From an uncultured Thermoplasmatales archaeon (GTDB taxonomy: Archaea > Thermoplasmatota > E2 > DHVEG-1), in contig CAYMOC010000002.1 of the NCBI GenBank assembly GCA_964391965.1, forward strand, positions 16,915 through 80,914: 64,000 bases of DNA. The letters are read 5' to 3'. A program made the position numbers and the translations under genes. The notes below the pieces were generated by a model. It did not search any database. It was not told where the DNA came from and worked only from the letters and a program-made list of their open reading frames with translations. Of this stretch, positions 6,383-38,902 are shown piece by piece. Within the stretch, counting starts at the first letter, position 1. Every line of letters begins with the position of its first letter.

Positions 6383-6480
6383 AAAAAATACATATTTTTT
6401 TTCTTTTTTTATTTTACTCTTTTTTAGTTATGTTTTTATTTAAAGAATATATCATGTTTCTTAATTAGTGAGGAACATTT

Positions 6481-7836: not shown

Positions 7837-7862
7837 AAAAAATCTATTTTTTTTTTATTTTT
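7837..7862. terminator. T-rich bidirectional terminator between convergent genes
   Basis: An oligo-T/A tract (tattttttttttatttttt) lies between the stop codons of convergent genes. Confidence 0.3.
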
Positions 7863-9483
7863 TACTAAGACGATCAATTATATGATTACGACAATACTCA
7901 GGATTACATTTTTTATCTGTTTTTCTCGCCACTGGTAAACCCGCGAGTCGCATCATAGGCCGGGTTGCTTTTTTTCCATGTTTCCAACGAGCATAAAACC
8001 AATGTACAAAGAAAAACATAGGACCAAGTACCTTTTGCATCTGCGGCGCCCAGAAATCAATATTATTACGCCAGCAACGAGAAAGTACCTCCCATTGAAG
8101 CTCTGTAAGATTATCAAGATTTGTTCGATGTGAATCACTAAGAAGTGCTTCACGAAGTGGAATAAAAAGAACAGGAGTGTAAAACATTTTAGAATTTTGA
8201 GCTCGCAGTTCATCTATCAACTCAAGTGTTGCCAATACATCATCCTCTGTTTCATCAGGCTGACCGGTCATAATAGTACACAATGGATACCAATCATGAT
8301 CATTTAGATGCCCTATTGCTTCAACTACAAGCTCAGGCCAATTATCAACACTGAAAGGCAATGCTTTTCCTTTCATATATTTCTGCATCAAACGAACACT
8401 ACCTGTTTCAATACCCATCTCAACAGAAATAAATGGTTTTTTGTAAAGTTCACTAGTCTTAGGAGTCCATTTAGTTTTCTCTATCAATATCGGTGTAAGT
8501 TCCTCAAGAAGTGTTTTATCGTACAAAATCGGTGCAAAAGAACCATGTGAAAGAAGAATATGTTCAACACCAGGATAATCCGCAATTGTCTTGTAAAGTT
8601 TTACAACCTCAGGTGTATTTGGAACAAAATTTTTTTTACATTTATAAAGAAAAATATCCTCAGTTACAGTAAAAATAGATTTAGAACCTTCTTTTATATT
8701 GGTTTTAACTTCTTTCATTATATGATCAATTGGAAAACTATGCCTGTTACGCATAGTAGGGCTACAAAAAGCACAACCACGTCCACAACCACGCATAATC
8801 TCAACCATTCCATAACTAGAAGCATGTTTAATCGTTGGAATGAAATCTCTTTTAGGATGAGCCGCCTCATAAAAAGCAGGAAATTTTTCACTGTTTAACA
8901 ATTTTTTGAAAACAGGTACAACTTCTTCCTCCCCTTCACCCTGAAAAATATGATCAATACCAAGCTTTTCTTGCATATTTGCTTCAGCAATCTGCCAGGC
9001 ACCCTGGCCGCCAACAATAACCTTTGGATCATATTTTTTAATAGAAGGATGCTTCAACAATTTCACAAACTCTGAAGCATTCAATGCTTCTCCACCAAAA
9101 CCAATCAAACTATTATAAGTAGTAGAAACATAAGCAAGACCCATAGGATCCATAGTTGAAATACCAACAACTTTTGTTTTTCGTCCTACAAAACGATGAA
9201 TTTGATCATAATGAGTGCAAACCACATTTTCTTCACCGAACTCATCAATAAGCATCGATTCAACCTTACGTAACCCATAAATAGTTTGTTTAGCAGAACC
9301 ATCAGAATTGCATTCAAGATTGTTTAAATGTTCACGAAGAGCATAACCCGAAAGTTTTTTTGGAAAAGTACAAATAAACGCGGCAAAAGGATTGTTATCA
9401 TACTCATTAGCTTCAGCTCTAGAAGCAGCTAAAACAATCGGTACACCTTCAACATCTGTATCCAACTCTAAATTATTGCTCAT
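7855..9483 (-). CDS. radical SAM protein with N-terminal B12-binding-like domain and long C-terminal extension (542 aa)
   Basis: CGRGCAFCS is a CxxxCxxC motif. An N-terminal Rossmann-like region (VVGISTMDP…KVIVGGQGA) is present. Confidence 0.6.
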   Translation of the reverse strand: MSNNLELDTDVEGVPIVLAASRAEANEYDNNPFAAFICTFPKKLSGYALREHLNNLECNSDGSAKQTIYGLRKVESMLIDEFGEENVVCTHYDQIHRFVGRKTKVVGISTMDPMGLAYVSTTYNSLIGFGGEALNASEFVKLLKHPSIKKYDPKVIVGGQGAWQIAEANMQEKLGIDHIFQGEGEEEVVPVFKKLLNSEKFPAFYEAAHPKRDFIPTIKHASSYGMVEIMRGCGRGCAFCSPTMRNRHSFPIDHIMKEVKTNIKEGSKSIFTVTEDIFLYKCKKNFVPNTPEVVKLYKTIADYPGVEHILLSHGSFAPILYDKTLLEELTPILIEKTKWTPKTSELYKKPFISVEMGIETGSVRLMQKYMKGKALPFSVDNWPELVVEAIGHLNDHDWYPLCTIMTGQPDETEDDVLATLELIDELRAQNSKMFYTPVLFIPLREALLSDSHRTNLDNLTELQWEVLSRCWRNNIDFWAPQMQKVLGPMFFFVHWFYARWKHGKKATRPMMRLAGLPVARKTDKKCNPEYCRNHIIDRLSKK

Positions 9484-9504
9484 AACAGAAACCTACAAAG
9501 AATT

Positions 9505-9828
9505 TTATGTTTTTTTAACAAGCATTTTTTTAAACAAAGGATCCTTAAGAGTCTCCTGAAGTTGACCTAGAAAATCATTCCATGAAAGACTATTATTAGA
9601 CCATTTAATCATTTCTTTTTTATGAAGTGAAAAAATTTTAAGAAAACTCTGCCAACTATAACCATCATCTTTTAATGGTTTAGACCAACCAGCATCACGC
9701 CAAAGATAACTAGGAAGCTTGTTTCCAAACCATAAAGTAAAAGAATCTATTTTAAGTTCCAAGTTTTTTTTCTGATTCATAAAATGTTTTTTTAATTTTT
9801 TAGGTTCAGGTGGAATATGATAATTCAT
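9505..9828 (-). CDS. hypothetical protein, probably co-transcribed with downstream radical SAM gene
   Basis: A 21-bp gap separates it from the next gene on the same strand. It is Trp-rich and I recognised no family. Confidence 0.3.
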   Translation of the reverse strand: MNYHIPPEPKKLKKHFMNQKKNLELKIDSFTLWFGNKLPSYLWRDAGWSKPLKDDGYSWQSFLKIFSLHKKEMIKWSNNSLSWNDFLGQLQETLKDPLFKKMLVKKT

Positions 9829-10026
9829 AGATTTTATACCCCATATATACTATATATAATATTTACAGCAAAGAGAGCATCAAGTATATATTTTTTTATA
9901 AAAAAATAAGAGAAAAACTACAATAATTAAGGATAAATGAGAAAAAAAATATTACACTACTCTAAATTTATTAATAGAAAACTTAATATTTAGATAACAA
10001 AAATATAACTAAAAGAATATAAGACG

Positions 10027-11019
10027 GTGGAAGAGCTGAAAAAAATTATAACCATTAAGGATAAACTATTTGCTCATTTAGAAACTTGGAGGATTTATAC
10101 TATTATATGGTGTGGTCTTGTAAGTCTTACAGGTTCATGCATATCTCATGAAGGTTTTCCACCATTAATAATTGCTTTTTTTGTAACAATTACACCGATG
10201 ATGGGATGGGCGGCAGCTCTATATCTATCAGATTTTTTAGACAGAAAACTTGATGCTATAGAAAAACCCCATAGGCCTATCCCTTCTGGAAGAATCAGCC
10301 CCAAAGAAGCAATAATTGTAGGCGGAATCTTTGTGATAACAGGGCTGATTATTTCATATATCTTAGGAATCTATAACTTTATTTTAGTGTTTATAGTAGC
10401 TATACTAGTTTATTCATATACAAAGATTTCAAAATCAAAAGGTTTAATGGGCAATCTGAACCGTGGAGTTGTAATAGTCGCAGCATATTTTTATGGAGTT
10501 TTTTCAGCAAATATACATATTGAATTATTGCCAGTATATATCTGGATATTACCACTTGTATTTCTCTTTCACGACACTAACAGCAATTTAGTTGGAGCCA
10601 TTCGAGATATGAAAGGCGACAAAAAAGGAGGATATCAAACTATACCAGTCAAGTATGGCCTGGAAAAATCTGTTTATATTTCATTAATTTTAACATTTAT
10701 ATGGCATGGTATACTATTATTTTTACAATATAACTATAAATTTTTAGAACCAGTTTTTTATGTTTTTTTGTTAATCGATATTTTTATTATAGTTTCATTA
10801 TATGGTTATATGTTTAGATCTATCAAAGACTACACTCGAAAAAAAGCTTTAAATTTTCATCGTTTTTTTGTGATAGAAAGAATAATACTTGCATCTAGCA
10901 TCATATTAGGAATAATTGAAATTAACTTAGGAGTAATTATTCTGATTTTATCCTTGATAACAACTATTACATCTCAACATTATTTAAGAAGTAGATATGA
11001 GTTTGTTGATAAAAAATGA
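10027..11019 (+). CDS. UbiA-family prenyltransferase (DGGGP-synthase-like)
   Basis: It has Asp-rich motifs DFLDRKLD (DxxDxxxD), RPIPSG and DMKGDKKGG. There are about 8 TM helices. The start codon is GTG. Confidence 0.65.
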   Translation: MEELKKIITIKDKLFAHLETWRIYTIIWCGLVSLTGSCISHEGFPPLIIAFFVTITPMMGWAAALYLSDFLDRKLDAIEKPHRPIPSGRISPKEAIIVGGIFVITGLIISYILGIYNFILVFIVAILVYSYTKISKSKGLMGNLNRGVVIVAAYFYGVFSANIHIELLPVYIWILPLVFLFHDTNSNLVGAIRDMKGDKKGGYQTIPVKYGLEKSVYISLILTFIWHGILLFLQYNYKFLEPVFYVFLLIDIFIIVSLYGYMFRSIKDYTRKKALNFHRFFVIERIILASSIILGIIEINLGVIILILSLITTITSQHYLRSRYEFVDKK

Positions 11020-12011
11020 AATATGCAGTTATTGGCTTAGGTGCCGTTGGGAGTATCATTGCTGGTTTACTTTCAAAAAACAATGAAAATGTTATCTTAA
11101 TTGGTAAAAAAACACAAATCGAGCAGATTAAAAAAAATGGATTAAAAATCTCAACAAATCAATCTGAGACAATAATAGAAAATCTTAACTTATCATCAAA
11201 GTTTGCTTCTGTAGAGAAAGTTGATATACTTTTTGTATGTGTAAAATCACAGGATACTAAAAAATTATTTTTAGAACTAAAAGAGTTTCTAAAAGAAGAA
11301 ACGGTTATTGTTTCATTACAAAATGGTGTTAGAAACGCTGAAATAATAAATAAAATTGTTAAAAATAAGGTACTTTCATCAGTAGTTTTATTCAATGCCG
11401 TATACAAAAAACCAGGAAACGTCGACTTGTCAATCAGGGGAGGAATTCTATTAGAAGATGATAAAAAATATTCAAAAATAATAGATGAATTATTCAAAAA
11501 CACGGATGTAAAAATAACTCTTGTCGAAAACATAAAAAGTTACCAATGGAGTAAACTTATCCTAAATCTGCAAATAGCTGTAACTGCACTTACTGGTCAA
11601 ACAATAAAAGAATCAATTATAAATAAGGATTCGAGGAAAATTTTAGCTGAAACAATGTCTGAAGGAGTAAAAATTGTTGACAAATCAGGTGTTAAACTTG
11701 AAAAACTGCCGGGTCTTGATCCAAAAAAAATGATTAAACGGCTTAATATGCTTAATTCAATATTTTTAAGAATAGGAAGTAAATTTCTTGGTGTTTCAAA
11801 GAATGCTAGAAATTCAATGTGGCAGAGTCTTGCAAGAAATAAAAAAACTGAAATAGATTTTATAAATGGTGAAATTGTAAAACTTGCAGAGAGAAATAAT
11901 TTAGAAGCACCTATAAATGAAAAACTTGTAAAATATGTAAAACAGGCCGAAAAAAAAGACAGTGTTGGTAACATCAAACCCAAGAAGTTGAGAAAAATAT
12001 TAGATTTTTAA
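11016..12011 (+). CDS. ketopantoate reductase (ApbA/PanE) family NAD(P)H oxidoreductase
   Basis: The N-terminus MKYAVIGLGAVGSIIAGLL is a Rossmann fold. Its start overlaps the UbiA stop (ATGA), giving translational coupling. Confidence 0.6.
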   Translation: MKYAVIGLGAVGSIIAGLLSKNNENVILIGKKTQIEQIKKNGLKISTNQSETIIENLNLSSKFASVEKVDILFVCVKSQDTKKLFLELKEFLKEETVIVSLQNGVRNAEIINKIVKNKVLSSVVLFNAVYKKPGNVDLSIRGGILLEDDKKYSKIIDELFKNTDVKITLVENIKSYQWSKLILNLQIAVTALTGQTIKESIINKDSRKILAETMSEGVKIVDKSGVKLEKLPGLDPKKMIKRLNMLNSIFLRIGSKFLGVSKNARNSMWQSLARNKKTEIDFINGEIVKLAERNNLEAPINEKLVKYVKQAEKKDSVGNIKPKKLRKILDF

Positions 12012-12064
12012 TTATTAAATTTTATTGGAAGCATTCTTAAGTTTGATATGAATTATAATGGATA

Positions 12065-12913
12065 ATGAAAAGAAATTCAAATAAACAAATTCAAGAGCAA
12101 TGGGCAAAATATTGGGATAACGTCTGGGTTCAGAAAGACGACTCAAAAAAACTTAAATCAATTAATAAAAAAGAGCAAATTTATTTTTCTTTAGCAGGCA
12201 TTATCAACTCATATATTAAAAATTATATTAAAAATGATAAAGAATACAGAATAATTGAGATTGGTTGCGGTGGTTCTTCAATATTTCCAATTTTGATGAA
12301 GAGCTTTAAAAATCTAAAAATCGCAGGTATTGATAGGTCTCTTCTTGGATGTAATTTCGTATTTGAAGGAAATGAATATAGAAATGGATCTGTTGATGTC
12401 ATCTGTGGTGATGCATTACAAATTCCAATAAAAAATAATTCTTTCGATATCTCTTATAGTATTGGCCTTGTTGAACATTTTGAAAATCAATATGAAATTA
12501 TCAAAAGCCATGTAGATCTTTTAAAAAAGGAGGGGTTAGTTGTAATAGTGATACCAAATCTAACTGGTTTTCAAAAAAAACTATTAAGATCTGAGCTTTT
12601 TAAATCCAAAACAGCATTGAACAATCAAAATTGGATTAATGGAATGAAAATAACGACAACTAATGATTTAAAAAAAATATTAAAAAAGCTAGATTGTAAA
12701 AAAATCGAAATCATACCCGCAGGAGGGTTACATCCGCTTTTAATGTTGGAATCATATTATTCAGAGAAATACTCTGAAGCAAATAAATTTTCAGATACTA
12801 TTTATAAAATCTTTTTATCAGGACTGTTTATAATAATTAATATTCCCTTTATATTTAGATTAAACATGATGAATTTATCACCTTTCATTGTAGCCACTGC
12901 AATAAAAAAATAA
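12065..12913 (+). CDS. class I SAM-dependent methyltransferase
   Basis: Motif I is IIEIGCGGSS. An acidic loop and a motif II-like region (VICGDALQIP) follow. Confidence 0.6.
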   Translation: MKRNSNKQIQEQWAKYWDNVWVQKDDSKKLKSINKKEQIYFSLAGIINSYIKNYIKNDKEYRIIEIGCGGSSIFPILMKSFKNLKIAGIDRSLLGCNFVFEGNEYRNGSVDVICGDALQIPIKNNSFDISYSIGLVEHFENQYEIIKSHVDLLKKEGLVVIVIPNLTGFQKKLLRSELFKSKTALNNQNWINGMKITTTNDLKKILKKLDCKKIEIIPAGGLHPLLMLESYYSEKYSEANKFSDTIYKIFLSGLFIIINIPFIFRLNMMNLSPFIVATAIKK

Positions 12914-12940
12914 TAAAAAAAACATATAAGTTGATAAAAA

Positions 12941-13594
12941 ATGAGTAGTAAAATAGTTATAAATTTTTTTTCTTTTATCAAAAAAATTTTGTTTTCTGAA
13001 TTTCCTGATAAATTCAAACCCGGGAGTTTAAAAAATGTTGTAGATCTGATGTTCAGAGTTTTTGAAAAAACAGCTCATAATTTTGATTTTATAACAAATG
13101 CATATTTGAATGCATATGAAGTTATGATTGAAAAAGAGTTAAAACTAACAGAGGTATCAAAGGATGATTCTGTTTTAATCATTGGATGTGGTTCTCTGCC
13201 TTCTACATCTATTGTTATTGCTGAAAAAACTAATGCTAAAAATGTTAGTATGGATATAGATAAATCTGCAGTTGAAGCAGCTAGAAAAATATTAAAGAAA
13301 ATGAATCTTTTAGATAAAGTAAAAGTAAGACTTGTTGAAGATATAAATTATCCAATAGATGATTTTGATTTAATCTTTATTTTATATGGTGTTAAGAAAC
13401 AGGAAAAAATTTTTAGACATATTTTTGAAAATGCAAAATCAGATGTTAAAGTTATAATTAGATCATATTCAGATGATTTTAAGAATGTTTTTGATTTTAA
13501 AAATTTTAAAGTTTTAGATCATTTTATAATTGTTAAAAAAGTTAGATCTGATGTTTTTGGACCTGTTTTTTCTTTTCTTTTAGAAAAAAAATAA
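12941..13594 (+). CDS. SAM-binding Rossmann-fold enzyme, nicotianamine-synthase-like glycine loop (or methyltransferase)
   Basis: VLIIGCGSLPSTSIVIAEK resembles the NAS motif (F/V)(I/V)GSGPLPLTSI(V/L). The protein is 217 aa. Confidence 0.4.
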   Translation: MSSKIVINFFSFIKKILFSEFPDKFKPGSLKNVVDLMFRVFEKTAHNFDFITNAYLNAYEVMIEKELKLTEVSKDDSVLIIGCGSLPSTSIVIAEKTNAKNVSMDIDKSAVEAARKILKKMNLLDKVKVRLVEDINYPIDDFDLIFILYGVKKQEKIFRHIFENAKSDVKVIIRSYSDDFKNVFDFKNFKVLDHFIIVKKVRSDVFGPVFSFLLEKK

Positions 13595-13601
13595 GTTTGT
13601 T

Positions 13602-14978
13602 TTATTTTTTTATTTTAGAAACTATTACTTTTATTTGATCTGAACGTGCATCTTTTTGTATATGATCTGTTTCTGTTACTCTGACTTTAACACTTTTTCC
13701 TATTTTTTGTTGAAATCTTTTTTGAAGTTCATTAATTAATTCTTTAACACTTACTCCTTGGTTTCTTTGTTTTTCATCTATTACGATTAATATTTCAACG
13801 TCATCAAGATCATGTTGCACTATTTGGAATTGTTTTATTTTATAAGAGTTAAAAAATTCCATTGTTTTTGCAGGGATACCAGTTACACTCAATGGAGAAA
13901 GTGTTTTTCCATTTGGAAGATAAATTAATTCTGATGTTCGGCCTTCGATGTGTTTTATTAATTTTGAAGTTATTCCACAACTTGTTTTTTTATCAATAGG
14001 TACAACTATGTCATCTATACCTGTATATCTTATTATTGGGGTTCCTTTCCCGTATAGTTTTGTTATTACTGTATGACCTGGTTTGTTTAAAGGAACGGGT
14101 TTATTGTTATCATCAAGTATTTCCATGTAGACATAGTCTGAGTGGATGTGGAAAAAGTTGCCTTCAACACATTCGAAACCTATTGGTCCTCCTTCTGTTG
14201 TTCCATAAATGTCAAAAACGCGTGTGTTGAATGCCTTTTCTACATATTTTTTTGTGTACTCATCAAGTGTTGAACCTCCAGAGCCTATGAATTTTGGTTG
14301 AATGTTTTTTCCTTGCCCATTGTGTTTTAAATATGCTAGTTGTCTAAGCATGTTAGGATCAGTAGCTAAAAACTCTGGTTGGAAAACATTTAGTTCTTTG
14401 ATTATTTTTTCTGGTTTTTCACCTAAATGCAGATATTTTACATGATCCATTGATATGAATTTTTTTGCGAAAGGCATTAGACTTTCTGAGAAAAAAGCGT
14501 TTTCTGCACTACCTGGTTCTACATCTATTATCAGACATGATTTTGTAGTTCTCCAGTTTCCACCATATGCTTTTAAAACTCTTATAAAAGCAAGCAGGCT
14601 TTTGATTGCAGCAAAACGGTCGATATAAATAAAAACTGGTTTACCAGTAGAGCCACTAGTAGATATTGTAAAACCGTCTTTTGTTTTAAAATTATAAGGT
14701 TTAATGTTTACAGGATAGTTATTTCTTAAATCATCTTTTGTGATGAAAGGAAGTTTACCGATATCATTTATTCCATGTATATCATCGGGATGAACTCCAG
14801 CTTTTTTGTATTTATCATGATACATTGGCACAGTGTATGCATATTTCACAATTTTTCTAAGTTGTTTATCCTGATATCGTCTAAGTTTTTCTTTGTCAAA
14901 ACTCCATGGTCTATTGATATCAGAAAGATAATTTTTGCCTAGATTATATAGAAATTTAGGATCGATAAAGAAACTCAT
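13602..14978 (-). CDS. PaaK/coenzyme F390 synthetase-like adenylate-forming enzyme
   Basis: It has the AMP-binding P-loop TSGSTGKP and an N-terminal region typical of COG1541. Confidence 0.65.
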   Translation of the reverse strand: MSFFIDPKFLYNLGKNYLSDINRPWSFDKEKLRRYQDKQLRKIVKYAYTVPMYHDKYKKAGVHPDDIHGINDIGKLPFITKDDLRNNYPVNIKPYNFKTKDGFTISTSGSTGKPVFIYIDRFAAIKSLLAFIRVLKAYGGNWRTTKSCLIIDVEPGSAENAFFSESLMPFAKKFISMDHVKYLHLGEKPEKIIKELNVFQPEFLATDPNMLRQLAYLKHNGQGKNIQPKFIGSGGSTLDEYTKKYVEKAFNTRVFDIYGTTEGGPIGFECVEGNFFHIHSDYVYMEILDDNNKPVPLNKPGHTVITKLYGKGTPIIRYTGIDDIVVPIDKKTSCGITSKLIKHIEGRTSELIYLPNGKTLSPLSVTGIPAKTMEFFNSYKIKQFQIVQHDLDDVEILIVIDEKQRNQGVSVKELINELQKRFQQKIGKSVKVRVTETDHIQKDARSDQIKVIVSKIKK

Positions 14979-15098
14979 TTTTCAAATATTTCCTCTTTTT
15001 TTGCTCTACATGTATTATTAACACAAGATATTTAACTTTTAATAATAGAACTATATTATTTGATTTAAAGGGAGGCGTCTTAACTGAGCGTGTTTTCT

Positions 15099-16412: not shown

Positions 16413-16416
16413 TGTT

Positions 16417-17814: not shown

Positions 17815-17828
17815 TTTTAGATCCTTTT

Positions 17829-19157
17829 TTAAATATTAAAATCATTTTTGTAATATCTTCTAAATGTAACATTAGTCCCCATAGGAAGTAATGCTCCCAT
17901 TCTCCTAACTGTTGTTAAAATCCTTGTGTTTCTTTTTATGATATTCTTCCACGAGTAAAATTCTTTAGCGACTTTTTTACTCCCGTTTAATAATTCTTCA
18001 ACGGTCATATTTTTGGGTTCAAAAACAACATCAACCTGATTATATTTACTCCAATCTTTAGTAAAAATACGTCCTTCTCTATCAAGCCTATCAAATAAAG
18101 GCGTACCTGGATACGGCGTTAAAATATTTATTTCAAGAACATCTATTTCAAGTTCATTTATTTTTTCAAGAGTTGCATCAAAAACATCAGGTGTGTCTTC
18201 ATCAAAACCAAATATTATCCCCCCTTGAATTGACATCCCGTAATCATGAACACGATCTATCATTTTACTAAAATCTTCAACCTTATTATGTGTTTTTTTT
18301 ATACCATTAAGAGCAGCCTGACTAACTGATTCAAAACCTACAAACCATTCAACACAACCAGATTCTCTAGCCAGCTGTAAAAATTCATCATCAGCTTTTA
18401 ACAAAACATTAGTTGTACCATTAGACACCCAACTTTTATTTATCTTATTTTTAATCATTTCCTTGAAAAGTTTTTTAGCATATTTTGGATTCGCAGTTAA
18501 ATGAGGATCATGAATTGTAAAGAGTCGGTTAGGCATTTCTTTCATTTCATTTATTACATTTTGTATAGGTCTTTGTTTAATACCATGCTCGCAGAAACTA
18601 GCAATTGCACAAAACTCACACCTGTTGGGACAACCACGTGTTGTCTGAACAGCACCCATAATAGGATTATGTCTGATAAGATCTCTTCTTATAGGAGGTA
18701 TGTCCTCGGGTTTATAGTTTGTATCTTTTTCATAAATTTTTTTAAGTTTTCCTTTCTCAAAATCAGCAAGAAGCTTAGGCCAGTTCGATTCAGCCATACC
18801 TAAAATAATACTATCAGCATGTTTCAAAGCCTCTTCAGGCACAGCAGTTGGATGATAACCTCCAAGAACTACTTTTTTACCCCTTTTTCTAAACTCATCA
18901 GCTATTTCATAGACACGTGGAGCTGTCATAGTATAACAAGTAATACCTATAAGATCTGCATCAGTATCAAAATCAAGGGAATCATAGTTCTCATTAACGA
19001 TTTCTACATCATATTTTTTAGGAGTGATTGCTGCAACATGGGGCAAAGTAATTATTGGATAACCAAAAAGAATAGAAGCCCATGAGCTTTTATCATTTAC
19101 AGTAGTTGCACCATGTTCAATCCTTGGAAACACAAGAAGTACTTTAATAAAGTTCAA
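17829..19157 (-). CDS. B12-binding radical SAM protein (DUF4070-like C-terminus)
   Basis: The radical SAM motif is RGCPNRCEFCA. It is a clear paralogue of 22762-24045. Confidence 0.7.
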   Translation of the reverse strand: MNFIKVLLVFPRIEHGATTVNDKSSWASILFGYPIITLPHVAAITPKKYDVEIVNENYDSLDFDTDADLIGITCYTMTAPRVYEIADEFRKRGKKVVLGGYHPTAVPEEALKHADSIILGMAESNWPKLLADFEKGKLKKIYEKDTNYKPEDIPPIRRDLIRHNPIMGAVQTTRGCPNRCEFCAIASFCEHGIKQRPIQNVINEMKEMPNRLFTIHDPHLTANPKYAKKLFKEMIKNKINKSWVSNGTTNVLLKADDEFLQLARESGCVEWFVGFESVSQAALNGIKKTHNKVEDFSKMIDRVHDYGMSIQGGIIFGFDEDTPDVFDATLEKINELEIDVLEINILTPYPGTPLFDRLDREGRIFTKDWSKYNQVDVVFEPKNMTVEELLNGSKKVAKEFYSWKNIIKRNTRILTTVRRMGALLPMGTNVTFRRYYKNDFNI

Positions 19158-19270
19158 ACCTCCCTAATTAATATTAAACTATTTATTGAACCTAAATAAT
19201 TTTTATGATGATTTATCCTTAAGAAGGGGAAGTATATTTAATCTTTTTTATTAGGTGATTAATAAAAAAA

Positions 19271-20587
19271 TCAAAAAAGTTTATCAAAATCCGAGATGAA
19301 ATAATCGGATTTATTTATTTCAACAGACTTAAAATCTATTTTAATTTTTGGATAGAGTTGAAATTTTGTTTTAATTTTTTTATTTAGACCATGTGAATTT
19401 AAAACTAAATTTAAACCAAAACCTTCAGGTGGTTTTAAAAAATCTAAGCTTATAGAACTATGATTTGTGTTAAATAATTGTCTTTGAGGTTCAAATTTAC
19501 AAAACCCTTCTAAATCTATTCTTCTATCGCCATTTGAATAAAAACCTTTTACAGTTCCAGGTTGTTCATAAACTATATATGCATTCTTATTGTCAGATAA
19601 TTTAAATAGAAAACCATATGGGTCAGTTTTTTTCTTAAAATTTATTTTGAATTTTTCTTTATCATCCTGAAAGATTAAACTTATTTCAGTGGGGTAATAA
19701 ATATCATGATCTTCTGAATATTCAATTTTTTTATATTCAAAACATCCATTAAAAAATTCTTTATATTTGCATCCATCCTTAGATAAAATAATTGTGCCTA
19801 TAACAGGGCCTTTTAATATCCATCCTAAAATATTACCATAAAAAAGAGTCCAACCATTATCAAAAACTGCCCATGCCCAATCATAACCAAGAGGGTTATT
19901 GTCTTTACTAAAAGCTAAGGAATTTGGGATTCTTGGTTTTTTGCATTGCAACCATTTACCCATTAGTTTAGCATAAGTTGAAAGACTTTTTTTAATATTT
20001 CTTGAATATGTAAACCAGTTTGTATATGAAAAATCTCCCCATACATGTTCATAATATCCAGAGCCGTTTACTGAAAAATTATTTTGATTTATGTTTAACA
20101 AACCTGAGATTTTACATTTTGGGATAAAACCATACCTGTAAAAACCTAAACCCATTGGAAGCCAGCCGTTAGTTGTTCCTTGGGATACCCAATGTGGTAG
20201 TGCTTCTGATTTATATGTTAAATTGGTTTGTATATTGTTTTTTTTATCATTCAAAAAAATTTTATAATCTGGGAATAAACCTTCGATGTATGAATCTTTG
20301 TAATTTATTTTTTGAGTTTTGTGATCTGCATATATTTTCAGTTTTTTTCGCTGATTTTCAGAATAATAACTATAATGTTTATTTTCATCTAAGTCGAAAA
20401 GAGTTATAAAAAAATTTGAGCCGTATTCTTTTGATTTTTTGAACCATTCGCCAAAGGAGGCTTTTAAATTCCATTTTTTTTTATTATCATTTTGTTTTAA
20501 AAAAGCTTCGAAACACCACCACTCTATTGCACTTTTTTCATGTTCTTTTTCATCAGAACAGCTCCAAGGATTTTTATTATCAACCAT
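19271..20587 (-). CDS. CrtC/AttH-like (carotenoid 1,2-hydratase/lipocalin-like) protein, tentative
   Basis: HEKSAIEWWCFEAFL resembles the H..EWWY.TGhL N-terminal motif of the CrtC/AttH family. The protein is Trp/Tyr-rich and beta-rich. The internal ATG at 20587 avoids overlap with the divergent gene. Confidence 0.35.
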   Translation of the reverse strand: MVDNKNPWSCSDEKEHEKSAIEWWCFEAFLKQNDNKKKWNLKASFGEWFKKSKEYGSNFFITLFDLDENKHYSYYSENQRKKLKIYADHKTQKINYKDSYIEGLFPDYKIFLNDKKNNIQTNLTYKSEALPHWVSQGTTNGWLPMGLGFYRYGFIPKCKISGLLNINQNNFSVNGSGYYEHVWGDFSYTNWFTYSRNIKKSLSTYAKLMGKWLQCKKPRIPNSLAFSKDNNPLGYDWAWAVFDNGWTLFYGNILGWILKGPVIGTIILSKDGCKYKEFFNGCFEYKKIEYSEDHDIYYPTEISLIFQDDKEKFKINFKKKTDPYGFLFKLSDNKNAYIVYEQPGTVKGFYSNGDRRIDLEGFCKFEPQRQLFNTNHSSISLDFLKPPEGFGLNLVLNSHGLNKKIKTKFQLYPKIKIDFKSVEINKSDYFISDFDKLF

Positions 20588-20682
20588 AGACAAAAATTGT
20601 ATTAAATAGATTATATAAATATGTTTATCATACATATAAAAAAGTTTTTTTATAGGATAAAACATATAAAAAATGGTTTTCT

Positions 20683-21699
20683 TTGCAGATGAAAAAAACA
20701 AAAGTTGACATAATAGGCGGGGGAATATCAGGATTAGCCGCAGCCATAGCAATAAAAAAACTTAACAAAAAAATAGATGTAAATATCTATGAAAAACACA
20801 AAAAAATAGGATACAACCCAGAAGGAAGAAGATGTGGAGAAGCCCATTCAATAGAAGGAAAATGGAAAAAATGGAAACCAAACAAAAAAAGCATATTCAA
20901 TGAAATATACAAAGTCGAAACAATAGTCGGGAAAAAAACTTATACACTAAAAAGAAAAAAAGGAACATCCTGCATATTAAACAGACAAGAATTCATATCA
21001 AATTTAGGAAAAAAAGCAGAAAAACTTGGAGCATACATACAAACAGATAACAAAATAAAAACAATAAAAGAATTAGATGCAAAATACATAATCGATGCAT
21101 CAGGATGCCCTAGCTTTGTAAAAAAAGAATTAAAAATTAACCATGGAATAACAGGAAAAACATATCAACAAACAATAGAAAACTCAAATTTTTTCATAAA
21201 AGACACCGTTAAAATATTTATAACAGAAAAAACAGGCTATTATTGGATTTTTCCAAGAAATCCCGATAAAAAAGAAATTAATCTAGGTGTAGGCATTGTC
21301 GGAAAAAAACAAGCTAACTTAAAAAAAATATTAAATGAATTTAAAGAAAAATACAAAGTCACAGGAGAAATTAATTACAAAACAGGAGGGTTGATACCGG
21401 TCGGGCTGCAGAGGCCGCTTAAACATGAAAATATACTATTTGTTGGGGATACAGGAGTCGGCACTTTTCCGTATACTGGAGAGGGAATATACCGTGCTCT
21501 ATTAAGTGGAGATATCGCAGCGGATTGCATCGTCAAAAAACAAATAAGAAGATATCCTCATGAAATAAATCAAAATTTTATCAAATGGGATCTTATTGGA
21601 AAAAATGTAATAAGGATAAGCTCAGTATTAGAAAGTATAAGCCCAAAAGCTGTTGTTTCAATGCATCAAAAATATCTCAATTTTTTTATTAGCAATTGA
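20683..21699 (+). CDS. geranylgeranyl reductase-family FAD-dependent oxidoreductase (short, 338 aa)
   Basis: It has the FAD-binding motif DIIGGGISGLAAA and the GGR-family motif FVGDTGVGTFPYTGEGIYRALLSG. Confidence 0.55.
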   Translation: MQMKKTKVDIIGGGISGLAAAIAIKKLNKKIDVNIYEKHKKIGYNPEGRRCGEAHSIEGKWKKWKPNKKSIFNEIYKVETIVGKKTYTLKRKKGTSCILNRQEFISNLGKKAEKLGAYIQTDNKIKTIKELDAKYIIDASGCPSFVKKELKINHGITGKTYQQTIENSNFFIKDTVKIFITEKTGYYWIFPRNPDKKEINLGVGIVGKKQANLKKILNEFKEKYKVTGEINYKTGGLIPVGLQRPLKHENILFVGDTGVGTFPYTGEGIYRALLSGDIAADCIVKKQIRRYPHEINQNFIKWDLIGKNVIRISSVLESISPKAVVSMHQKYLNFFISN

Positions 21700-21735
21700 A
21701 TAGAAAATAATATTATTACTATTTATTTTTAAATT

Positions 21736-22716
21736 TTATCTATCAAATTTTTTGGGATACATGGTGTAACCAAATTCGTCAAAATAAAAAATCATTTTTT
21801 TATAAATGTATTCTCTAAGAAACTTTACTTCTCGGGCAAGATTAAGATTTCTAGGCTCTACATAATCCTTAAAATCTACGTCAGTTGTTACATCTAAAAA
21901 ATCAAGTACTTCATCCATTGTTTTATCTGTTTTATTACAAAGTGACTCATATGTAATAGAAACATAATCATTATCATTTAACTTATGTATATTATTTAGA
22001 TAAAAACTTGTTTCTTTTGAAGCCCTATTTATAATATCAAAAACACCAGTAGGAAAAAAACCTGAATAATATAAACGATTTAATGCTAAAAGAATAGGAT
22101 TTTCATATGTTTTATTATATTTTTTTGAAAACATTGCAGTATACAAATTCTTTTTCTCTAATAATTTCTGCCATGCCCTCATTGTAGAACTGATAACTGC
22201 TAGTGGATTTCTGTTGATAAAAATAAATTTGGCATTTGGAAAATGTTTTTTTATAAATAAAAAATTTGGATAATCATATGGGTTTTTAAGAAGAACAGGA
22301 TAATTATTTTTAGATATAAACATAATTTTTTGACATAATTGTTTTAAAAGAGCTGTGTTTTCCAAAGAAGTTTTCTCAGACATGTTTTTTTTAGTGTAAA
22401 TGTAAACATATTCATGAGCGTAATCAGCTGTTACTTTAATTCGATCAATTTTTCTATTAGTGATTCCTTTTGATTTAAAAACTTCATTAAGTTCTTCCTT
22501 TGTATCTTGTTCAAGGTTATTTATATGATTATAAATTAACTCATCATATTTTAAAATATGATACGCAGTTACAATATTGAGTTTTTTTGTATCACCTAGC
22601 ATTTTGTAAAGAATGCTTGTACCAGATCTATGCAAACCCATGATAAATATAGGATAAAAATCCATATTTTCTATTAGGTTAAGATGTGTTTTGTCAATAT
22701 TTTTTTCTTGTAACAT
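21736..22716 (-). CDS. PAPS-dependent sulfotransferase
   Basis: The 5'-PSB motif is GLHRSGTSIL and the 3'-PB motif is RNPLAVISS. Confidence 0.65.
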   Translation of the reverse strand: MLQEKNIDKTHLNLIENMDFYPIFIMGLHRSGTSILYKMLGDTKKLNIVTAYHILKYDELIYNHINNLEQDTKEELNEVFKSKGITNRKIDRIKVTADYAHEYVYIYTKKNMSEKTSLENTALLKQLCQKIMFISKNNYPVLLKNPYDYPNFLFIKKHFPNAKFIFINRNPLAVISSTMRAWQKLLEKKNLYTAMFSKKYNKTYENPILLALNRLYYSGFFPTGVFDIINRASKETSFYLNNIHKLNDNDYVSITYESLCNKTDKTMDEVLDFLDVTTDVDFKDYVEPRNLNLAREVKFLREYIYKKMIFYFDEFGYTMYPKKFDR

Positions 22717-22761
22717 TTTTTTATCAGAAAAATATAGTTTATTGTTATAAAATAATTTTTT

Positions 22762-24045
22762 TCAGATGTTTAGTTTTTCATTTTTGTAAAAATATCTAGT
22801 ACTTAAACCTGAAAGAAATGATGTTAAAACATCTATAACATTAAAACCATTGTTTTTTATACTTCTTTTTAAACAGTTTTTAACCGAGTAAAACTCTCCA
22901 GCTATCCTTCTGATACCCTCATATAATTCATCAGCCGTCATTTCTTTTGGTATGAAATTTACTTTACCTTCTTCATATCTTGACCAATCATAACTTGTTA
23001 TCCTTCCTTCTTTTTCCAATCTATCAAATAGTGGGGTACCTGGATAAGGTGTTAATATACTAAATGTTGCTGAATCAAGACCCCAATCATACATTGCTTT
23101 AAGTGTTTCATCAAAACAATCTGGTGTGTCATAATCTAACCCAAATACAAAAAAACCTGTAACTTTCATATCATGATTTTTGATTTTTTGGATAGCTTTT
23201 TCATAATCTTCAACCTTATTTGTACCCTTACCAGCAGAATCGATGCTTTCTTGGGATATAGATTCTATACCAAGATACCATCTTACAACGCCTGCTTTTT
23301 TAGCTAATTCTAAAAATTCATCATCTTTTGCTACAATATTTATATTGCCAAATGCATAAAATTTTTTATCAAGTTTCGCCATTTCCCTAAAAAGTTTTTT
23401 TGTATATTTTGGATTGATCGTGAGTGATGCATCTGCAAAAAATATTGATTTAGATTTTATTTTTTTCATTTCGTCAATTACAGATTCTACAGGACGGGCT
23501 CTAAAAATTCTTCCCTCCACCCTATTCATAGCGCAGAATTCACAACCAGTTGGACAACCTCGAGATACTTGGATTCCCTCCATAAAAGTATAATTACCGA
23601 CATCATGTCTTGCCTGTGGTATTTCTTCAGGTTTTACTAATCTTTCAGGTGTATATATTTTTTTAAGTTCTCCTTTTTCTAAATCCTTTAAAAGTTTAGG
23701 CCAAGTAAGTTCTCCTTCTCCAATAACTATTGCATCAGCATGCTCTTTTACTTCATCAGGCATAAGAGTTGCATGATAACCACCAATTACTACAGGCATA
23801 TTTTTTTCTCTAAATTTTTTTGCGACTTCATAAGCTCTAAGAGAATTATAAGTTAGAGACGTGATACCGACCAAATCATATTTTTTATTAAAATCTATAG
23901 TTTCATATCTTTCATCAATGATTTCAACATCATGTCCGTCCGGTGTAATACCAGCGATTTGTTGTAAAGTCAAACTAGGATAAGTAATCTTATTTAACAT
24001 ACTTCTTTTTGTATTTGGATGAGGAGAAACTAATAAAATTTTCAT
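22762..24045 (-). CDS. B12-binding radical SAM protein
   Basis: The radical SAM motif is RGCPTGCEFCA. It is a paralogue of 17829-19157. Confidence 0.7.
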   Translation of the reverse strand: MKILLVSPHPNTKRSMLNKITYPSLTLQQIAGITPDGHDVEIIDERYETIDFNKKYDLVGITSLTYNSLRAYEVAKKFREKNMPVVIGGYHATLMPDEVKEHADAIVIGEGELTWPKLLKDLEKGELKKIYTPERLVKPEEIPQARHDVGNYTFMEGIQVSRGCPTGCEFCAMNRVEGRIFRARPVESVIDEMKKIKSKSIFFADASLTINPKYTKKLFREMAKLDKKFYAFGNINIVAKDDEFLELAKKAGVVRWYLGIESISQESIDSAGKGTNKVEDYEKAIQKIKNHDMKVTGFFVFGLDYDTPDCFDETLKAMYDWGLDSATFSILTPYPGTPLFDRLEKEGRITSYDWSRYEEGKVNFIPKEMTADELYEGIRRIAGEFYSVKNCLKRSIKNNGFNVIDVLTSFLSGLSTRYFYKNEKLNI

Positions 24046-24289
24046 CTTTTAACACATCTAACAAATTTTTTTTATAAATTTTTTATATACAATTCTTATA
24101 TTTGTAGTTTTACCAACAAAACCCTGTTAATAAACTAAATTTTAGCGTAAATACACTCTATACTGGTTTAGTTTACTAAATAGGTTTTATTTAAAATTTT
24201 TTGATAGATCTATCCAAAAGAAAAAATTGATATCAACAGTAGTTTTTAATATTTCATGTTTTATTTTCCAATACTGGCGAATTGATATT

Positions 24290-25687
24290 ATGAATGAATT
24301 CTTTAATCCAAAAAATACATTTTCGTTTTTAAAAACATTTTTTTTCGATCCAAAAAGATTAAAGAATTTTTCCAAAGAAAAAATGGAAAGATATAGAAAT
24401 AAAGCATTTAGAAAAACAATAGAGTATGCTTATACAGTTCCTTTATACCATAAAAAATATAGAAAAGCAGGAGTACACCCTAAAGATATAAAAGGATTTA
24501 AAGATATAGAAAAACTACCTTTCGTTACAAAGAAAGACCTTAGAGAGGCATCCTTAGAAGAGATTATTTCAAAAGGTGCAAAAAAAGAGAATAAATATGT
24601 TGTTTGCACCAGTGGTTCTACTGGAAAACCTGTAAATTTTTTTACTGATTTTCAAACATTATCAAAAAGTATTGGGATTTACTTGAGAGAATTAGAGATT
24701 TTTGATTTACATTGGAGAAAGTCAAAAGTAGCACATATTGGAAATTTTAGTAAAGACAAAGCAGATTCTGCTTTCGAAGAAGGTTTTGTATCCAAAACAC
24801 GTGTTTTTTACAACCATAGTAACTCTCTTTCAATTAACAATTTTGAACCGATAGATAAAATTATGAAAAAATTAGACAGTTTTAAACCCGATCTGATTTT
24901 ATCCTACCCGGTGACTTTTAAAAATTTAGCTTTTTTAAAAAATAAAGGATATGGTAAAAACGTTAACCCCCAGGTTTTAGCTGTTGGCGGTTATGTTTTA
25001 GATGAATATACCAAAAAATATGTAGAGGATGCTTTCAACTGTAAAATGTTAAATGTTTACTCATCAGCAGAATCAGGTGCAGATATTGCATTTGAATGTT
25101 TTGATGATACTTGGCATGTAAACCATGATTTTTTCCATGTTGAATCTATAGATGAACAAAGAACTCCTGTTGATGATAAAACTTCAGGTCATGTTGTTTT
25201 GACAAGGATGTTTGGACAAGGAACGCCTATAGTTAGATACACAGGTATGGATGATTGGGTTACAATAGAAGAAGATTATAACTGCAGTTGTGGTTTAAAT
25301 ACCCCTATTTTAAAAGGTGGTATTAAAGGTAGGATGAGCACAAGTGTTATTTTACCAGATGGAAGAGTTTATCCTTCTGCATCATTTGCTTTTATATCTG
25401 TTATTTTAAATAAGTTTAATACAAAAAAAGTGAAACAATTTCAGATAATTCAGAATAAAATTGATGATATTGAGATTTTACTTGTAATAGATGAAGTCCT
25501 TAGAGATAAACCTCCCGCGGTTGATAAAATTTTTAATAAAATAAAAGAAAAATATCAAGAGATCTGCGGAGAAAATGTTAATATCAAAGTAAGAGAGGTA
25601 GATGAAATTAAATCTGAAAGAGGGAAACCTTCACCTTTGGTGATTTCAAAGATTGATACTGAAGAGGCATATAAAAAAATATTATAA
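24290..25687 (+). CDS. PaaK/coenzyme F390 synthetase-like adenylate-forming enzyme
   Basis: The P-loop is TSGSTGKPVNFF. It is a close paralogue of 13602-14978. The start is at the internal ATG at 24290. Confidence 0.65.
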   Translation: MNEFFNPKNTFSFLKTFFFDPKRLKNFSKEKMERYRNKAFRKTIEYAYTVPLYHKKYRKAGVHPKDIKGFKDIEKLPFVTKKDLREASLEEIISKGAKKENKYVVCTSGSTGKPVNFFTDFQTLSKSIGIYLRELEIFDLHWRKSKVAHIGNFSKDKADSAFEEGFVSKTRVFYNHSNSLSINNFEPIDKIMKKLDSFKPDLILSYPVTFKNLAFLKNKGYGKNVNPQVLAVGGYVLDEYTKKYVEDAFNCKMLNVYSSAESGADIAFECFDDTWHVNHDFFHVESIDEQRTPVDDKTSGHVVLTRMFGQGTPIVRYTGMDDWVTIEEDYNCSCGLNTPILKGGIKGRMSTSVILPDGRVYPSASFAFISVILNKFNTKKVKQFQIIQNKIDDIEILLVIDEVLRDKPPAVDKIFNKIKEKYQEICGENVNIKVREVDEIKSERGKPSPLVISKIDTEEAYKKIL

Positions 25688-31784: not shown

Positions 31785-31865
31785 GTTTATCTCTCCTTTT
31801 AAAAGCAATAACAAAAATAATTAACATACGTTAACTATATAATATTTTTCCAAAAAAAGAAAAAA

Positions 31866-32420: not shown

Positions 32421-32436
32421 TTTAAAACAAAAAAAA

Positions 32437-33198: not shown

Positions 33199-33222
33199 AC
33201 TATTTAAACATTATAGTTATCT

Positions 33223-37864: not shown

Positions 37865-37937
37865 TTTATCCAAACCAAATTTTTTATTTGTTTGTTTATA
37901 TAAATTTTCATATATAAATTTTTCCTTATATAAAAAA

Positions 37938-38846: not shown

Positions 38847-38902
38847 GAATCTTATGCCACCTTAAATCTTAAAAGTTGATAGTAGAAAACATAATTAAAT
38901 AA

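Follow-up and report, generated by a model that had tools for sequence, protein, structure and literature searches.

The described system closest to the genes reported here is the Ted-Hgs pair of Candidatus (Ca.) Bathyarchaeota, whose two activities were demonstrated by heterologous expression in a preprint of October 2025 (bioRxiv 10.1101/2025.10.20.683597). Ted is a cobalamin (B12)-binding radical S-adenosylmethionine (SAM) enzyme that carries out the anaerobic desaturation of saturated chains of glycerol dialkyl glycerol tetraethers (GDGTs), and Hgs, an AttH-like protein whose gene overlaps ted, hydrates GDGT double bonds to yield hydroxy-GDGTs. The genes came from Ca. Bathyarchaeota B1_G15 and a Guaymas metagenome (loci DRO69_02625 and GBSed_1000338311); homologues were accepted at a BLASTP E-value of at most 1e-100 with a length of at least 500 aa for Ted, and at an E-value of at most 1e-80 for Hgs. 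At that threshold Hgs homologues were found almost only in Methanobacteriota and Bathyarchaeota and not in Thermoplasmatota. It was also reported that genes for the GDGT methylases Cgm and Pgm co-occur with PF00501/AMP-binding genes, including paaK, in 25% of neighbourhoods, and lipid methylation was tied to amphiphile stress (bioRxiv 10.1101/2025.10.20.683597). Here we describe an 18-kb block of 15 genes (g1-g15, 7855-25687; the island) on contig CAYMOC010000002.1 (GCA_964391965.1) of an uncultured sediment Thermoplasmatota archaeon. The whole stretch analysed, called the window, comprises 64,000 nt (16,915-80,914 of the contig, forward strand), and island coordinates count from its position 1. 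With a probability of roughly 0.55, we propose that the island is a modular system for the assembly and remodelling of an O-prenylated isoprenoid compound, probably the archaeol- or GDGT-type ether lipids of the host.

Sedimentary tetraether lipids are in wide use as environmental and palaeoclimate markers, yet no direct measurement has been made of the lipids of uncultured Thermoplasmatota in sediments (PMC11868695). In this group, the one for which the Ted-Hgs preprint reported no Hgs homologue, the island provides widely conserved candidate genes for lipids that are unsaturated, hydroxylated or methylated and possibly also carry sulfate or sugar groups, and these candidates are testable in existing hosts (T. 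kodakarensis, and M. acetivorans plus Tes). A triad of genes for a UbiA-superfamily prenyltransferase, a reductase and a nicotianamine synthase (NAS)-like enzyme, together with conserved PaaK-type ligases, may in addition point to new head-group chemistry.

The g10-g11 pair compared with Ted-Hgs

Families were assigned by Pfam and NCBIfam profile searches, with AlphaFold models and fold searches for g8 and g11. Related loci were collected in two scans, one with g8 against one genome per species and one with g11 against metagenome contigs; the window proteins were mapped onto these loci and neighbouring open reading frames (ORFs) were clustered de novo, and the counts below are from the 54 loci of at least 6 kb. 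The genes g10 and g11 lie on the same strand, 113 bp apart, and were adjacent in 13 of these loci and co-occurring in 30. The g10 protein, whose type is encoded in 30 of the 54 loci and which is 65-93% identical among relatives, is the best conserved member of the island, with more than 120 clusters at 71-93% identity, nearly all of 439 aa and all from uncultured organisms. The hallmark of Ted-Hgs, a B12-binding radical SAM gene adjoining an AttH-like hydratase gene, was found in g10-g11, as in Ted-Hgs in an anaerobic sediment archaeon and near other lipid genes, and the AttH-like hydratase fold of Hgs is also predicted by the model of g11. Likened by fold, domains and gene arrangement, g10-g11 and Ted-Hgs are pairs of one kind. 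They differ in that ted and hgs overlap, whereas g10 and g11 are adjacent (about 100 bp) in an order that varies, and reports on Ted-Hgs mention no genes of the UbiA, NAS-like, PaaK-like or sulfotransferase types.

The AlphaFold model of g11 had a predicted local distance difference test score (pLDDT) of 89.3 and matched AttH (2ich, 3e-14) and kievitone hydratase (7a0q, 2e-11) in Foldseek, in agreement with the CrtC/AttH-like call of the first-pass annotation. The Pfam CrtC score was under its threshold (17.6 against 22.5 bits), so the CrtC assignment is by fold alone, and fold matches also included Diels-Alderases and phosphosteroid lyase. With CrtC and kievitone hydratase, g11 has in common this fold, together with acidic and aromatic residues that are invariant in the g11 family, and it differs from them by a structural identity of only 12-15%, by the sub-threshold CrtC score and by the lack of carotenoid genes. 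On its model, g11 is a putative isoprenoid double-bond hydratase. CrtC acts on long isoprenoid chains, and in carotenoid glycoside pathways the new tertiary alcohol is glycosylated after CrtC hydration; this hydratase-then-glycosyltransferase logic is paralleled by the hydratase and sulfotransferase of the island, or by the glycosyltransferase in two related loci (L088 and L138). CrtC-family enzymes have been described to hydrate chains such as C20 geranylgeraniol to tertiary alcohols (PMC6013536).

The g11 family is small, with 213 of 1.84 billion representatives, and an E-value of at most 1e-30 was reached by 46. Nearly every member that has a name comes from Thermoplasmatota or from an unclassified euryarchaeal metagenome-assembled genome, and one is labelled Atribacterota. 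Because no Hgs homologues of Thermoplasmatota were reported at the 1e-80 threshold, g11 probably forms a subfamily separate from Hgs. Many related loci (L095, L099, L100, L102, L103, L104, L110 and L140) carry the g11 type plus a second AttH-fold paralogue, 37-40% identical, and the paired genes are often in tandem after a g10-type gene.

Radical SAM proteins of the island

The CxxxCxxC motif was found in all four radical SAM proteins, at C233 in g1, C209 in g9, C176 in g10 and C164 in g14. In g9, g10 and g14, both the B12-binding domain (53.2, 42.9 and 47.4 bits, Pfam cut-off 32.1) and the Radical_SAM domain (98, 64 and 83 bits) scored above the Pfam thresholds, placing these proteins in the class B (cobalamin-dependent) radical SAM enzymes; DUF4070 is present in g10 and g14. 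In g1, Radical_SAM scored 42.5 bits with CGRGCAFC at C233, and the B12-binding match was sub-threshold (17.7 against 32.1 bits, E 0.0033), so that g1 is not class B by Pfam thresholds. A cobalamin-binding-like N-domain, assumed for all four proteins in the first-pass annotation, is thus supported for three of them, while the radical SAM assignment stands for all four. The g1 protein has weak NCBIfam matches to TIGR04013 and to the MiaB/RimO N-domain, and it was seen only in the close relatives L003 (92%) and L113 (77%), each time beside an M18 peptidase gene. The small gene g2, 21 bp upstream of g1, has no Pfam or NCBIfam match and is kept only in the same two loci (94% and 70%); its product may serve g1 as a small partner or as a substrate.

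The B12-binding radical SAM proteins were compared with the BchE, HpnJ, HpnR, PhpK, methyl-coenzyme M reductase (MCR) glutamine methyltransferase and ladderane-cluster radical SAM equivalogs. None of the named equivalogs was reached: scores were 165 bits for HpnJ (cut-off 578), 163 for BchE (481) and 111 for TIGR04072 (360), and 65-107 bits against 650 for the HpnR model. The top NCBIfam matches of g9, at 157-165 bits, were all under their cut-offs, and g9 matched the structure of an MCR glutamine C-methyltransferase (9ccb) at 1e-22. The g14 protein is a paralogue of g10 (43% identical), with orthologues at 60-69% identity in 14 of the 54 loci, beside g10 in 6; g9-type genes were found in 12.

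Grs and Gmm are known B12-binding radical SAM lipid enzymes (PMC11214058). With the lipid modifiers of this kind (the GDGT ring synthases GrsA/GrsB; the GMGT/GDGT methylases Gmm, Cgm and Pgm; the hopanoid methylases HpnP/HpnR), g9, g10 and g14 have the enzyme class in common, and g10 and g14 also have DUF4070, as in HpnP. These modifiers act on unactivated carbons of isoprenoid lipids, and several paralogues per genome are usual, as in the island; the cgm and pgm genes co-occur with AMP-binding/paaK genes, and the island likewise joins B12-binding radical SAM and PaaK-type genes. Unlike the named enzymes, g9, g10 and g14 reach no NCBIfam cut-off, and Grs, Gmm and Cgm were compared by description only.

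A rearranged core recurs in Thermoplasmatota

The synteny search recovered a rearranged core of the island in about 60 divergent loci, and all named members belong to Thermoplasmatota. The core consists of g10 with g11, the UbiA-reductase-NAS-like triad, a divergent PaaK-type pair, further B12-binding radical SAM genes and a short paralogue of the geranylgeranyl reductase (GGR) family. In four loci (L128, L146, L114 and L088), most of these modules are combined in other orders. Gene order differing by lineage while several loci combine most modules favours functional linkage over inherited synteny, and since the rearranged core recurs in so many divergent loci, the clustering seen in the island is not chance. 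The first-pass annotation had presented a single 15-gene cluster; the contiguity of the genes was confirmed, but a fixed unit was not, and the unit is better described as a modular core with lineage-specific additions.

The UbiA-reductase-NAS-like triad

The g3 protein scored 123 bits for Pfam UbiA (cut-off 34.2) and carries about seven hydrophobic segments and two Asp-rich motifs, D69xxD72xxxD76 (DFLDRKLD at 69) and D194xxxD198 (DMKGD at 194), with RPIPSG at 83. By its Pfam score, the two Asp-rich motifs and its character as a polytopic membrane protein, g3 belongs to the UbiA superfamily. Its best matches were PRK12884 (121.6 bits, cut-off 269) and the digeranylgeranylglyceryl phosphate (DGGGP) synthase (DGGGPS) of M. 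jannaschii (6m31, 3e-20). All DGGGP synthase equivalog scores were under the cut-offs (PRK12882, 96 against 296; PRK12883, 87 against 353; PRK12884, 122 against 269), and copies of g3 in related loci are 45-66% identical. Judged from sequence, g3 is a predicted divergent paralogue in the O-prenylating DGGGPS/chlorophyll-synthase branch of UbiA. A housekeeping role as DGGGP synthase was considered and is unlikely: a second UbiA gene on the related contig L094 scored 262 bits with PRK12884, just under the cut-off, against 122 bits for g3. Because this contig carries a separate and far better DGGGPS candidate, g3 is taken to be a specialised paralogue.

Compared with the core ether-lipid pathway, which consists of geranylgeranylglyceryl phosphate (GGGP) synthase (GGGPS), DGGGPS and GGR, g3 is nearest to DGGGP synthase and g12 is in the GGR family. 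Both are divergent and under the equivalog cut-offs, though, and GGGPS and two full-length GGRs are found elsewhere in the window. The core pathway also lacks the reductase and the NAS-like enzyme that accompany g3.

The g3 and g4 genes share an ATGA stop-start overlap, and the translational coupling of a UbiA prenyltransferase to an ApbA/PanE-type reductase, already noted in the first-pass annotation, was confirmed. The g4 protein contains ApbA and ApbA_C and exceeds the cut-off of the TIGR00745 subfamily (203 bits, cut-off 141), while it is under that of the PRK08229 equivalog (259 against 371). The triad has the order UbiA, reductase, NAS-like enzyme, in which the reductase is of the ApbA type in 5 loci and of a non-homologous short-chain dehydrogenase/reductase (SDR)/epimerase type in 11. 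That related loci have an SDR where the island has g4 speaks against g4 acting as the 2-dehydropantoate 2-reductase of the pantothenate pathway.

The two SAM-fold enzymes of the first-pass annotation were both recovered. The g5 protein scored 46.7 bits for Methyltransf_11 and has one C-terminal hydrophobic segment (residues 245-264). For g6, the Pfam NAS score was marginal (27.5 against 27.1 bits) and the CntL NCBIfam score was 60.5 against 350; CntL structures were matched at 5e-9. The 34 members of the g6 family conserve Y55, E65, G-C-G-x-x-P-x-T at 82-89 and D105, with G82, G84 and P87 present in at least 90% of them. The g6 protein lacks the N-terminal ~100 residues of CntL/NAS, and the alignment begins at CntL residue 106; the Pfam threshold and the SAM-site motifs of NAS/CntL were thus found, and the full-length architecture and the CntL equivalog score were not. 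From its sequence, g6 is a putative 3-amino-3-carboxypropyl transferase. Of the 54 loci, 28 contain the NAS-like gene, in most cases adjoining the UbiA and reductase genes, and 21 contain the g3-type UbiA. Like the staphylopine-type NAS/CntL enzymes, g6 has the SAM-binding core, G-x-G-x-x-P-x-T and the upstream Tyr/Glu, with an NAD(P)H reductase near; it differs in its length of 217 aa, in a reductase of PanE or SDR type that is not an opine dehydrogenase, and in having a membrane prenyltransferase as partner.

The PaaK-type ligases g7, g8 and g15

The three PaaK-like adenylating enzymes were upheld, g7 and g15 by profiles and g8 by its model. The g7 protein scored 127 bits with TIGR02155 and matched BT_0428/PaaK structures at 6e-31, with TSGSTG at residue 107. 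The g15 protein is a paralogue of g7 (39% identical) that matched NCBIfam PaaK-type models at 91-94 bits, under the cut-offs, with TSGSTG at residue 128. For g8, no Pfam hit was obtained and TIGR02304 scored 118.6 bits (cut-off 251.9); the AlphaFold model (pLDDT 90.6) matched BT_0428 at 4.8e-23, in addition to PaaK1/2, and SSGSSG is located at residue 115. By sequence, g8 matched true PaaK at only 0.00018. The PaaK fold is supported for g7 and g8, the (S/T)SG(S/T)(S/T)G motif is present in all three proteins, and all are far under the TIGR02155 equivalog cut-off of 646 (127 bits for g7, 91 for g15 and 29 for g8).

The divergent g7-g8 pair is adjacent in 7 loci, and g15-type genes were found in 10 of the 54. 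Homologues of g8 are 49-94% identical in Thermoplasmatota and 33-44% identical in bacteria. The bacterial homologues were considered as members of the island system and rejected, being in different contexts such as a ketosynthase/phosphopantetheinyl transferase cluster in Desulfotomaculum copahuensis. In that locus (L092, NZ_LYVF01000106), the g8 homologue is 41% identical, and the cluster contains three B12-binding radical SAM genes, a ketosynthase pair, a PIG-L deacetylase, nitrilase-family and AMP-binding genes, a phosphopantetheinyl transferase and transporters.

The GGR paralogue g12 and lineage-specific genes around the core

The short GGR-like flavoprotein and the sulfotransferase using 3'-phosphoadenosine 5'-phosphosulfate (PAPS) of the first-pass annotation were also confirmed. 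The g12 protein exceeds the GGR_cat cut-off (36.3 bits, cut-off 27) and is under that of TIGR02032 (124 bits, cut-off 158.8); its orthologues, at 55-63% identity, were found in 6 loci, beside g11 in 4. The g13 protein scored 81.8 bits for Sulfotransfer_3 (cut-off 27) and carries RSGT at 30 and RNPLAVISS at 169, as expected of a PAPS sulfotransferase. An orthologue of g13 (45%) is present in L116, and an unrelated sulfotransferase gene directly follows the g11 homologue in L094. Sulfatase genes are located beside a g10-type gene in 4 loci, and in L122 the sulfatase gene (5665-6999) lies between g10 and g11. The sulfatases, together with the sulfotransferases of the window, L094 and L116, hint at a sulfate-ester turnover tied to the system.

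GT28/UDPGT-type glycosyltransferases were found in 8 loci, as were genes for MiaB/RimO-family radical SAM methylthiotransferases (including 4480-5742 in L094 and 8478-9821 in L093). The MiaB/RimO-type gene encodes no TRAM domain, scores 253 bits with TIGR00089 (cut-off 251) and is adjacent to UbiA and g11-type genes; methylthiolation of a lipid or quinone is a possible function. The sulfotransferase, sulfatase, glycosyltransferase and MiaB-like genes are lineage-specific additions. Four related loci contain aconitase-X genes at a few kb from the island (including 1457-3027 in L093 and 35-1219 in L160). The aconitase-X family includes the enzyme that dehydrates phosphomevalonate in the archaeal mevalonate pathway, and the proximity may be lineage synteny only.

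Proposed function and alternative explanations

From the enzyme families, folds and conserved neighbourhoods we infer a scheme in which every substrate and step is conditional. The g10 enzyme would activate a saturated isoprenoid chain at an unactivated carbon, for desaturation as in Ted, or for methylation or ring closure. The cofactor-free g11 would then hydrate the chain double bond to a tertiary alcohol, as do Hgs, CrtC and kievitone hydratase, and g14 and g9 may perform further C-methylations, desaturations or cyclisations. Double bonds may be re-saturated or trimmed by g12, and a hydroxyl sulfated by g13, where other lineages have glycosyltransferases or a sulfatase. At the polar end, g4 (the SDR in other lineages) would reduce a carbonyl to an alcohol that is O-prenylated by g3, after which g6 would move the aminocarboxypropyl part of SAM onto this end, and g7, g8 and g15 would adenylate carboxylates for amide or ester links. 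Alternatively, the three ligases may accompany membrane remodelling by activating aryl or fatty acids of amphiphilic character, compare the paaK genes near GDGT methylase genes. The predicted membrane anchor of g5 is counted for the lipid proposal.

An isoprenoid or ether-lipid tailoring function had been put forward in the first-pass annotation; it is strengthened by the fold of g11, the branch of g3, the combination of B12-binding, radical SAM and DUF4070 domains in g10 and g14 and the synteny of the core, with the product itself predicted. The other option given there, a sulfated or amidated small metabolite, may also apply. That annotation had also described the locus as having no obvious counterpart. 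This holds for the whole combination, and literature searches found no described counterpart for the UbiA-reductase-NAS-like triad, the three-PaaK set or the sulfotransferase. It does not hold for the B12-binding radical SAM/AttH pair, given Ted-Hgs, nor for the association of B12-binding radical SAM and PaaK genes (bioRxiv 10.1101/2025.10.20.683597).

Several points weigh against the lipid proposal. No island protein has a characterised product or substrate, and none of the 15 reaches an NCBIfam equivalog cut-off. The g10 proteins are shorter (439-442 aa) than the at least 500 aa of Ted homologues, a filter that g10 (442 aa), g14 (427 aa) and g9 (465 aa) would all fail, and Hgs homologues were reported missing from Thermoplasmatota, the group of nearly all named g11-family members. 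Because g10 is shorter than the Ted minimum and Thermoplasmatota were reported without Hgs, the g10-g11 pair may be analogous rather than orthologous to Ted-Hgs, and its chemistry may be related or different. Enzymes of the NAS/CntL and PaaK types typically belong to pathways for soluble small molecules, and we know of no established role for them in archaeal lipid synthesis. It would be unusual for a tertiary alcohol to be sulfated. The island lacks genes for Tes, CDP-archaeol synthase and head groups. The genes g1, g2 and g5 are without cross-lineage support, and an orthologue of g5 was not found in the 54 comparison loci. Methylation of the backbone of butanetriol dialkyl glycerol tetraethers (BDGTs) was also considered, and no cultured BDGT producer was found among the homologues.

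Under an alternative that we regard as unlikely, though worth serious attention, two functions lie side by side: a lipid-tail set (g9-g14, perhaps g3-g6), and PaaK-type ligases that activate aromatic or fatty acids from peptide fermentation for catabolism or detoxification, co-regulated with the former and acting on a different molecule. The window encodes peptidases of families M32, M18, C1 and S8, from which aryl acids would be expected, g7 is clearly PaaK-like (6e-31), bacterial g8 homologues occur in unrelated contexts, and paaK and other PF00501 genes lie beside GDGT methylase genes, with methylation tied to amphiphile stress (bioRxiv 10.1101/2025.10.20.683597). However, neither the island nor its relatives contain other genes for aromatic-acid catabolism, the g8 sequence is remote from true PaaK and under every NCBIfam cut-off, and the retention of three paralogous ligases and of the g7-g8 pair, across orders, beside NAS-like and B12-binding radical SAM genes suggests dedicated roles. 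The ligases and the NAS-like enzyme are also central to another possibility, that the product is a prenylated amino-acid-derived small molecule, for example a lipid-tailed nicotianamine- or opine-like metallophore made by the NAS-like enzyme, the reductase and the ligases and then modified by C-methylation, hydration and sulfation. As the pathways from which NAS/CntL and PaaK enzymes are otherwise known make soluble metabolites, this is a real alternative, if a distinctly unlikely one. The g6 protein belongs to the NAS/CntL family by its motifs and is encoded near an NAD(P)H reductase gene, as the CntL gene adjoins that of the opine dehydrogenase CntM in the cnt operon; PaaK-family ligases make esters and amides in natural-product pathways, with NatL2, AjiA1 and ClxA among the fold matches of g8, and sulfotransferases and B12-binding radical SAM methylases are common tailoring enzymes. 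Yet g6 lacks the N-terminal domain of CntL/NAS, the reductase is a non-homologous SDR in most loci and so fits an opine dehydrogenase poorly, the core is not accompanied by any conserved transporter, regulator or carrier protein, and the sole characterised counterpart of its most conserved pair, the B12-binding radical SAM and AttH-fold genes, acts on GDGTs.

A polyprenyl-phosphate-linked sugar or surface glycan is improbable. In such a system the UbiA protein would act as a decaprenyl-phosphate phosphoribosyltransferase followed by the SDR, CapK-like ligases would convert sugar acids to amides, and the glycan would be decorated by sulfo- and glycosyltransferases. UbiA and SDR genes are adjacent in 11 loci, which recalls the phosphoribosyltransferase-then-reductase logic of mycobacterial UbiA/DprE2, g7- and g8-type homologues are annotated with a CapK_C domain, 8 loci contain glycosyltransferases, and AglB and a polyprenyl-phosphate translocase-like gene are present elsewhere in the window. 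Against this, g3 scored 36 bits on the phosphoribosyltransferase model but 122 on DGGGPS-type models, the AttH/CrtC fold and the GGR paralogue point to isoprenoid double bonds rather than sugars, and no conserved flippase or oligosaccharyltransferase accompanies the core. Very improbable is the tailoring of a tetrapyrrole or quinone cofactor, either by a bacteriochlorophyll-like set (BchE-like radical SAM protein, ChlG/BchG-like UbiA, BchP-like reductase, hydratase and methyltransferases) or towards a methylated or methylthiolated prenylquinone. BchE was the top NCBIfam match of g10 and g14 and the second of g9, ChlG/BchG and BchP/ChlP models were also matched, and MiaB-like methylthiotransferase genes are present in 8 related loci. 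These scores were far under the cut-offs and no higher than for lipid or other B12-binding radical SAM families, 4-hydroxybenzoate-type UbiA models reached only about 40 bits on g3, and no tetrapyrrole or quinone ring-forming gene was found in any locus. With ring-forming genes missing and every score sub-cut-off, this pathway was rejected as the leading explanation.

Returning to the ether-lipid proposal, a more detailed version is doubtful, though not far-fetched. The product would be an undescribed class of ether lipids, with mid-chain desaturation and hydration by a Thermoplasmatota-specific B12-binding radical SAM/AttH pair, a hydroxyl that is sulfated here and glycosylated in sister lineages, and a phosphorus-free aminocarboxypropyl (homoserine-type) head group made by the UbiA, reductase, NAS-like and PaaK-type module. 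An analogue for such a head group is the synthesis of bacterial and algal betaine lipids by BtaA/BtaB.

Gene inventory and genomic context

The genes of the island are listed in Table 1. The 15 contiguous genes of the first-pass annotation were all recovered as ORFs at, or within 63 bases of, their first-pass coordinates, nearly every family call was upheld by profile searches of each ORF, and the several changes of strand were as described. The shorter starts chosen for g8 (15099) and g15 (24290) agree with gene calls on identical Logan contigs, while the start of g11 is probably near 20587 or 20665 instead of 20752.

Table 1 Genes of the island, with positions in the window and family assignments.
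Gene	Position	Strand	Assignment
g1	7855..9483	-	542-aa radical SAM protein; island membership uncertain
g2	9505..9828	-	107-aa Trp-rich protein, no family match
g3	10027..11019	+	UbiA-superfamily prenyltransferase
g4	11016..12011	+	ApbA/PanE-type NAD(P)H oxidoreductase
g5	12065..12913	+	class I SAM methyltransferase
g6	12941..13594	+	short (217-aa) NAS/CntL-like SAM enzyme
g7	13602..14978	-	PaaK-type adenylate-forming ligase
g8	15099..16412	+	divergent PaaK-fold ligase, F390-synthetase-related
g9	16417..17814	-	B12-binding radical SAM enzyme, HpnJ/BchE/PhpK-like, 465 aa
g10	17829..19157	-	B12-binding radical SAM enzyme with DUF4070, 442 aa
g11	19271..20665	-	AttH/CrtC-fold protein; start probably 20587, giving ~438 aa
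g12	20689..21699	+	336-aa short GGR-family flavoprotein, divergent from g11
g13	21736..22716	-	PAPS-type sulfotransferase
g14	22762..24045	-	B12-binding radical SAM enzyme with DUF4070, 427 aa
g15	24290..25687	+	PaaK-type adenylate-forming ligase

As also stated in the first-pass annotation, the island is flanked by housekeeping genes, which profile searches identified as an M18 peptidase gene upstream and purE and guaA, the latter split, downstream. Near-identical DNA was found only in metagenome-derived contigs. In the closest genome record, labelled 'uncultured Thermoplasmatales archaeon', g1-g10 are present in the same order at 88-95% protein identity. In public annotations, the island proteins go by 'hypothetical protein' or by generic names of families. 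The GC content of the window is about 30%, with 0.291 for the island and 0.322 for the remaining window; this difference is uninformative as to horizontal transfer or 'accessory' status. A regulatory motif shared by the divergent intergenic regions was considered and dropped: only TTTTTTTATA was common to three of the four regions, and because these have a GC content of 17-26%, the sharing of TTTTTTTATA is no evidence of co-regulation.

No RNA family was found in the window by Rfam search. Sizeable ORFs (729, 253, 421 and 361 aa) without Pfam match are located at 46840-49029 (+), 53147-55248 (-) and 59189-60274 (+). The window is rich in peptidases, with four genes per 64 kb for M32, M18, papain-type C1 and a 1221-aa subtilase (21-1385, 6481-7836, 30219-31814 and 34298-37963), and a PKD-domain surface protein is encoded at 5270-6382; together these suggest a protein-degrading lifestyle of the host. 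A 1645-aa AglB/STT3 oligosaccharyltransferase with a long C-terminal Ig-like/CarboxypepD_reg extension is encoded at 37938-45790 (-), and near it are a VCA0040-like polyprenyl-phosphate translocase-like gene and an amidohydrolase gene.

Canonical lipid genes lie in a row outside the island at 31866-34008 (-): a PF02441 flavoprotein gene, the GGGP synthase gene PcrB (32437-33198) and an inositol monophosphatase-family gene (33223-34008). Counting g12, three GGR-family genes are present in the window, the two further paralogues being at 49039-50301 (-, 420 aa) and 56095-57291 (+, 398 aa), and a gene for a small 2x[4Fe-4S] ferredoxin is located upstream of the latter.

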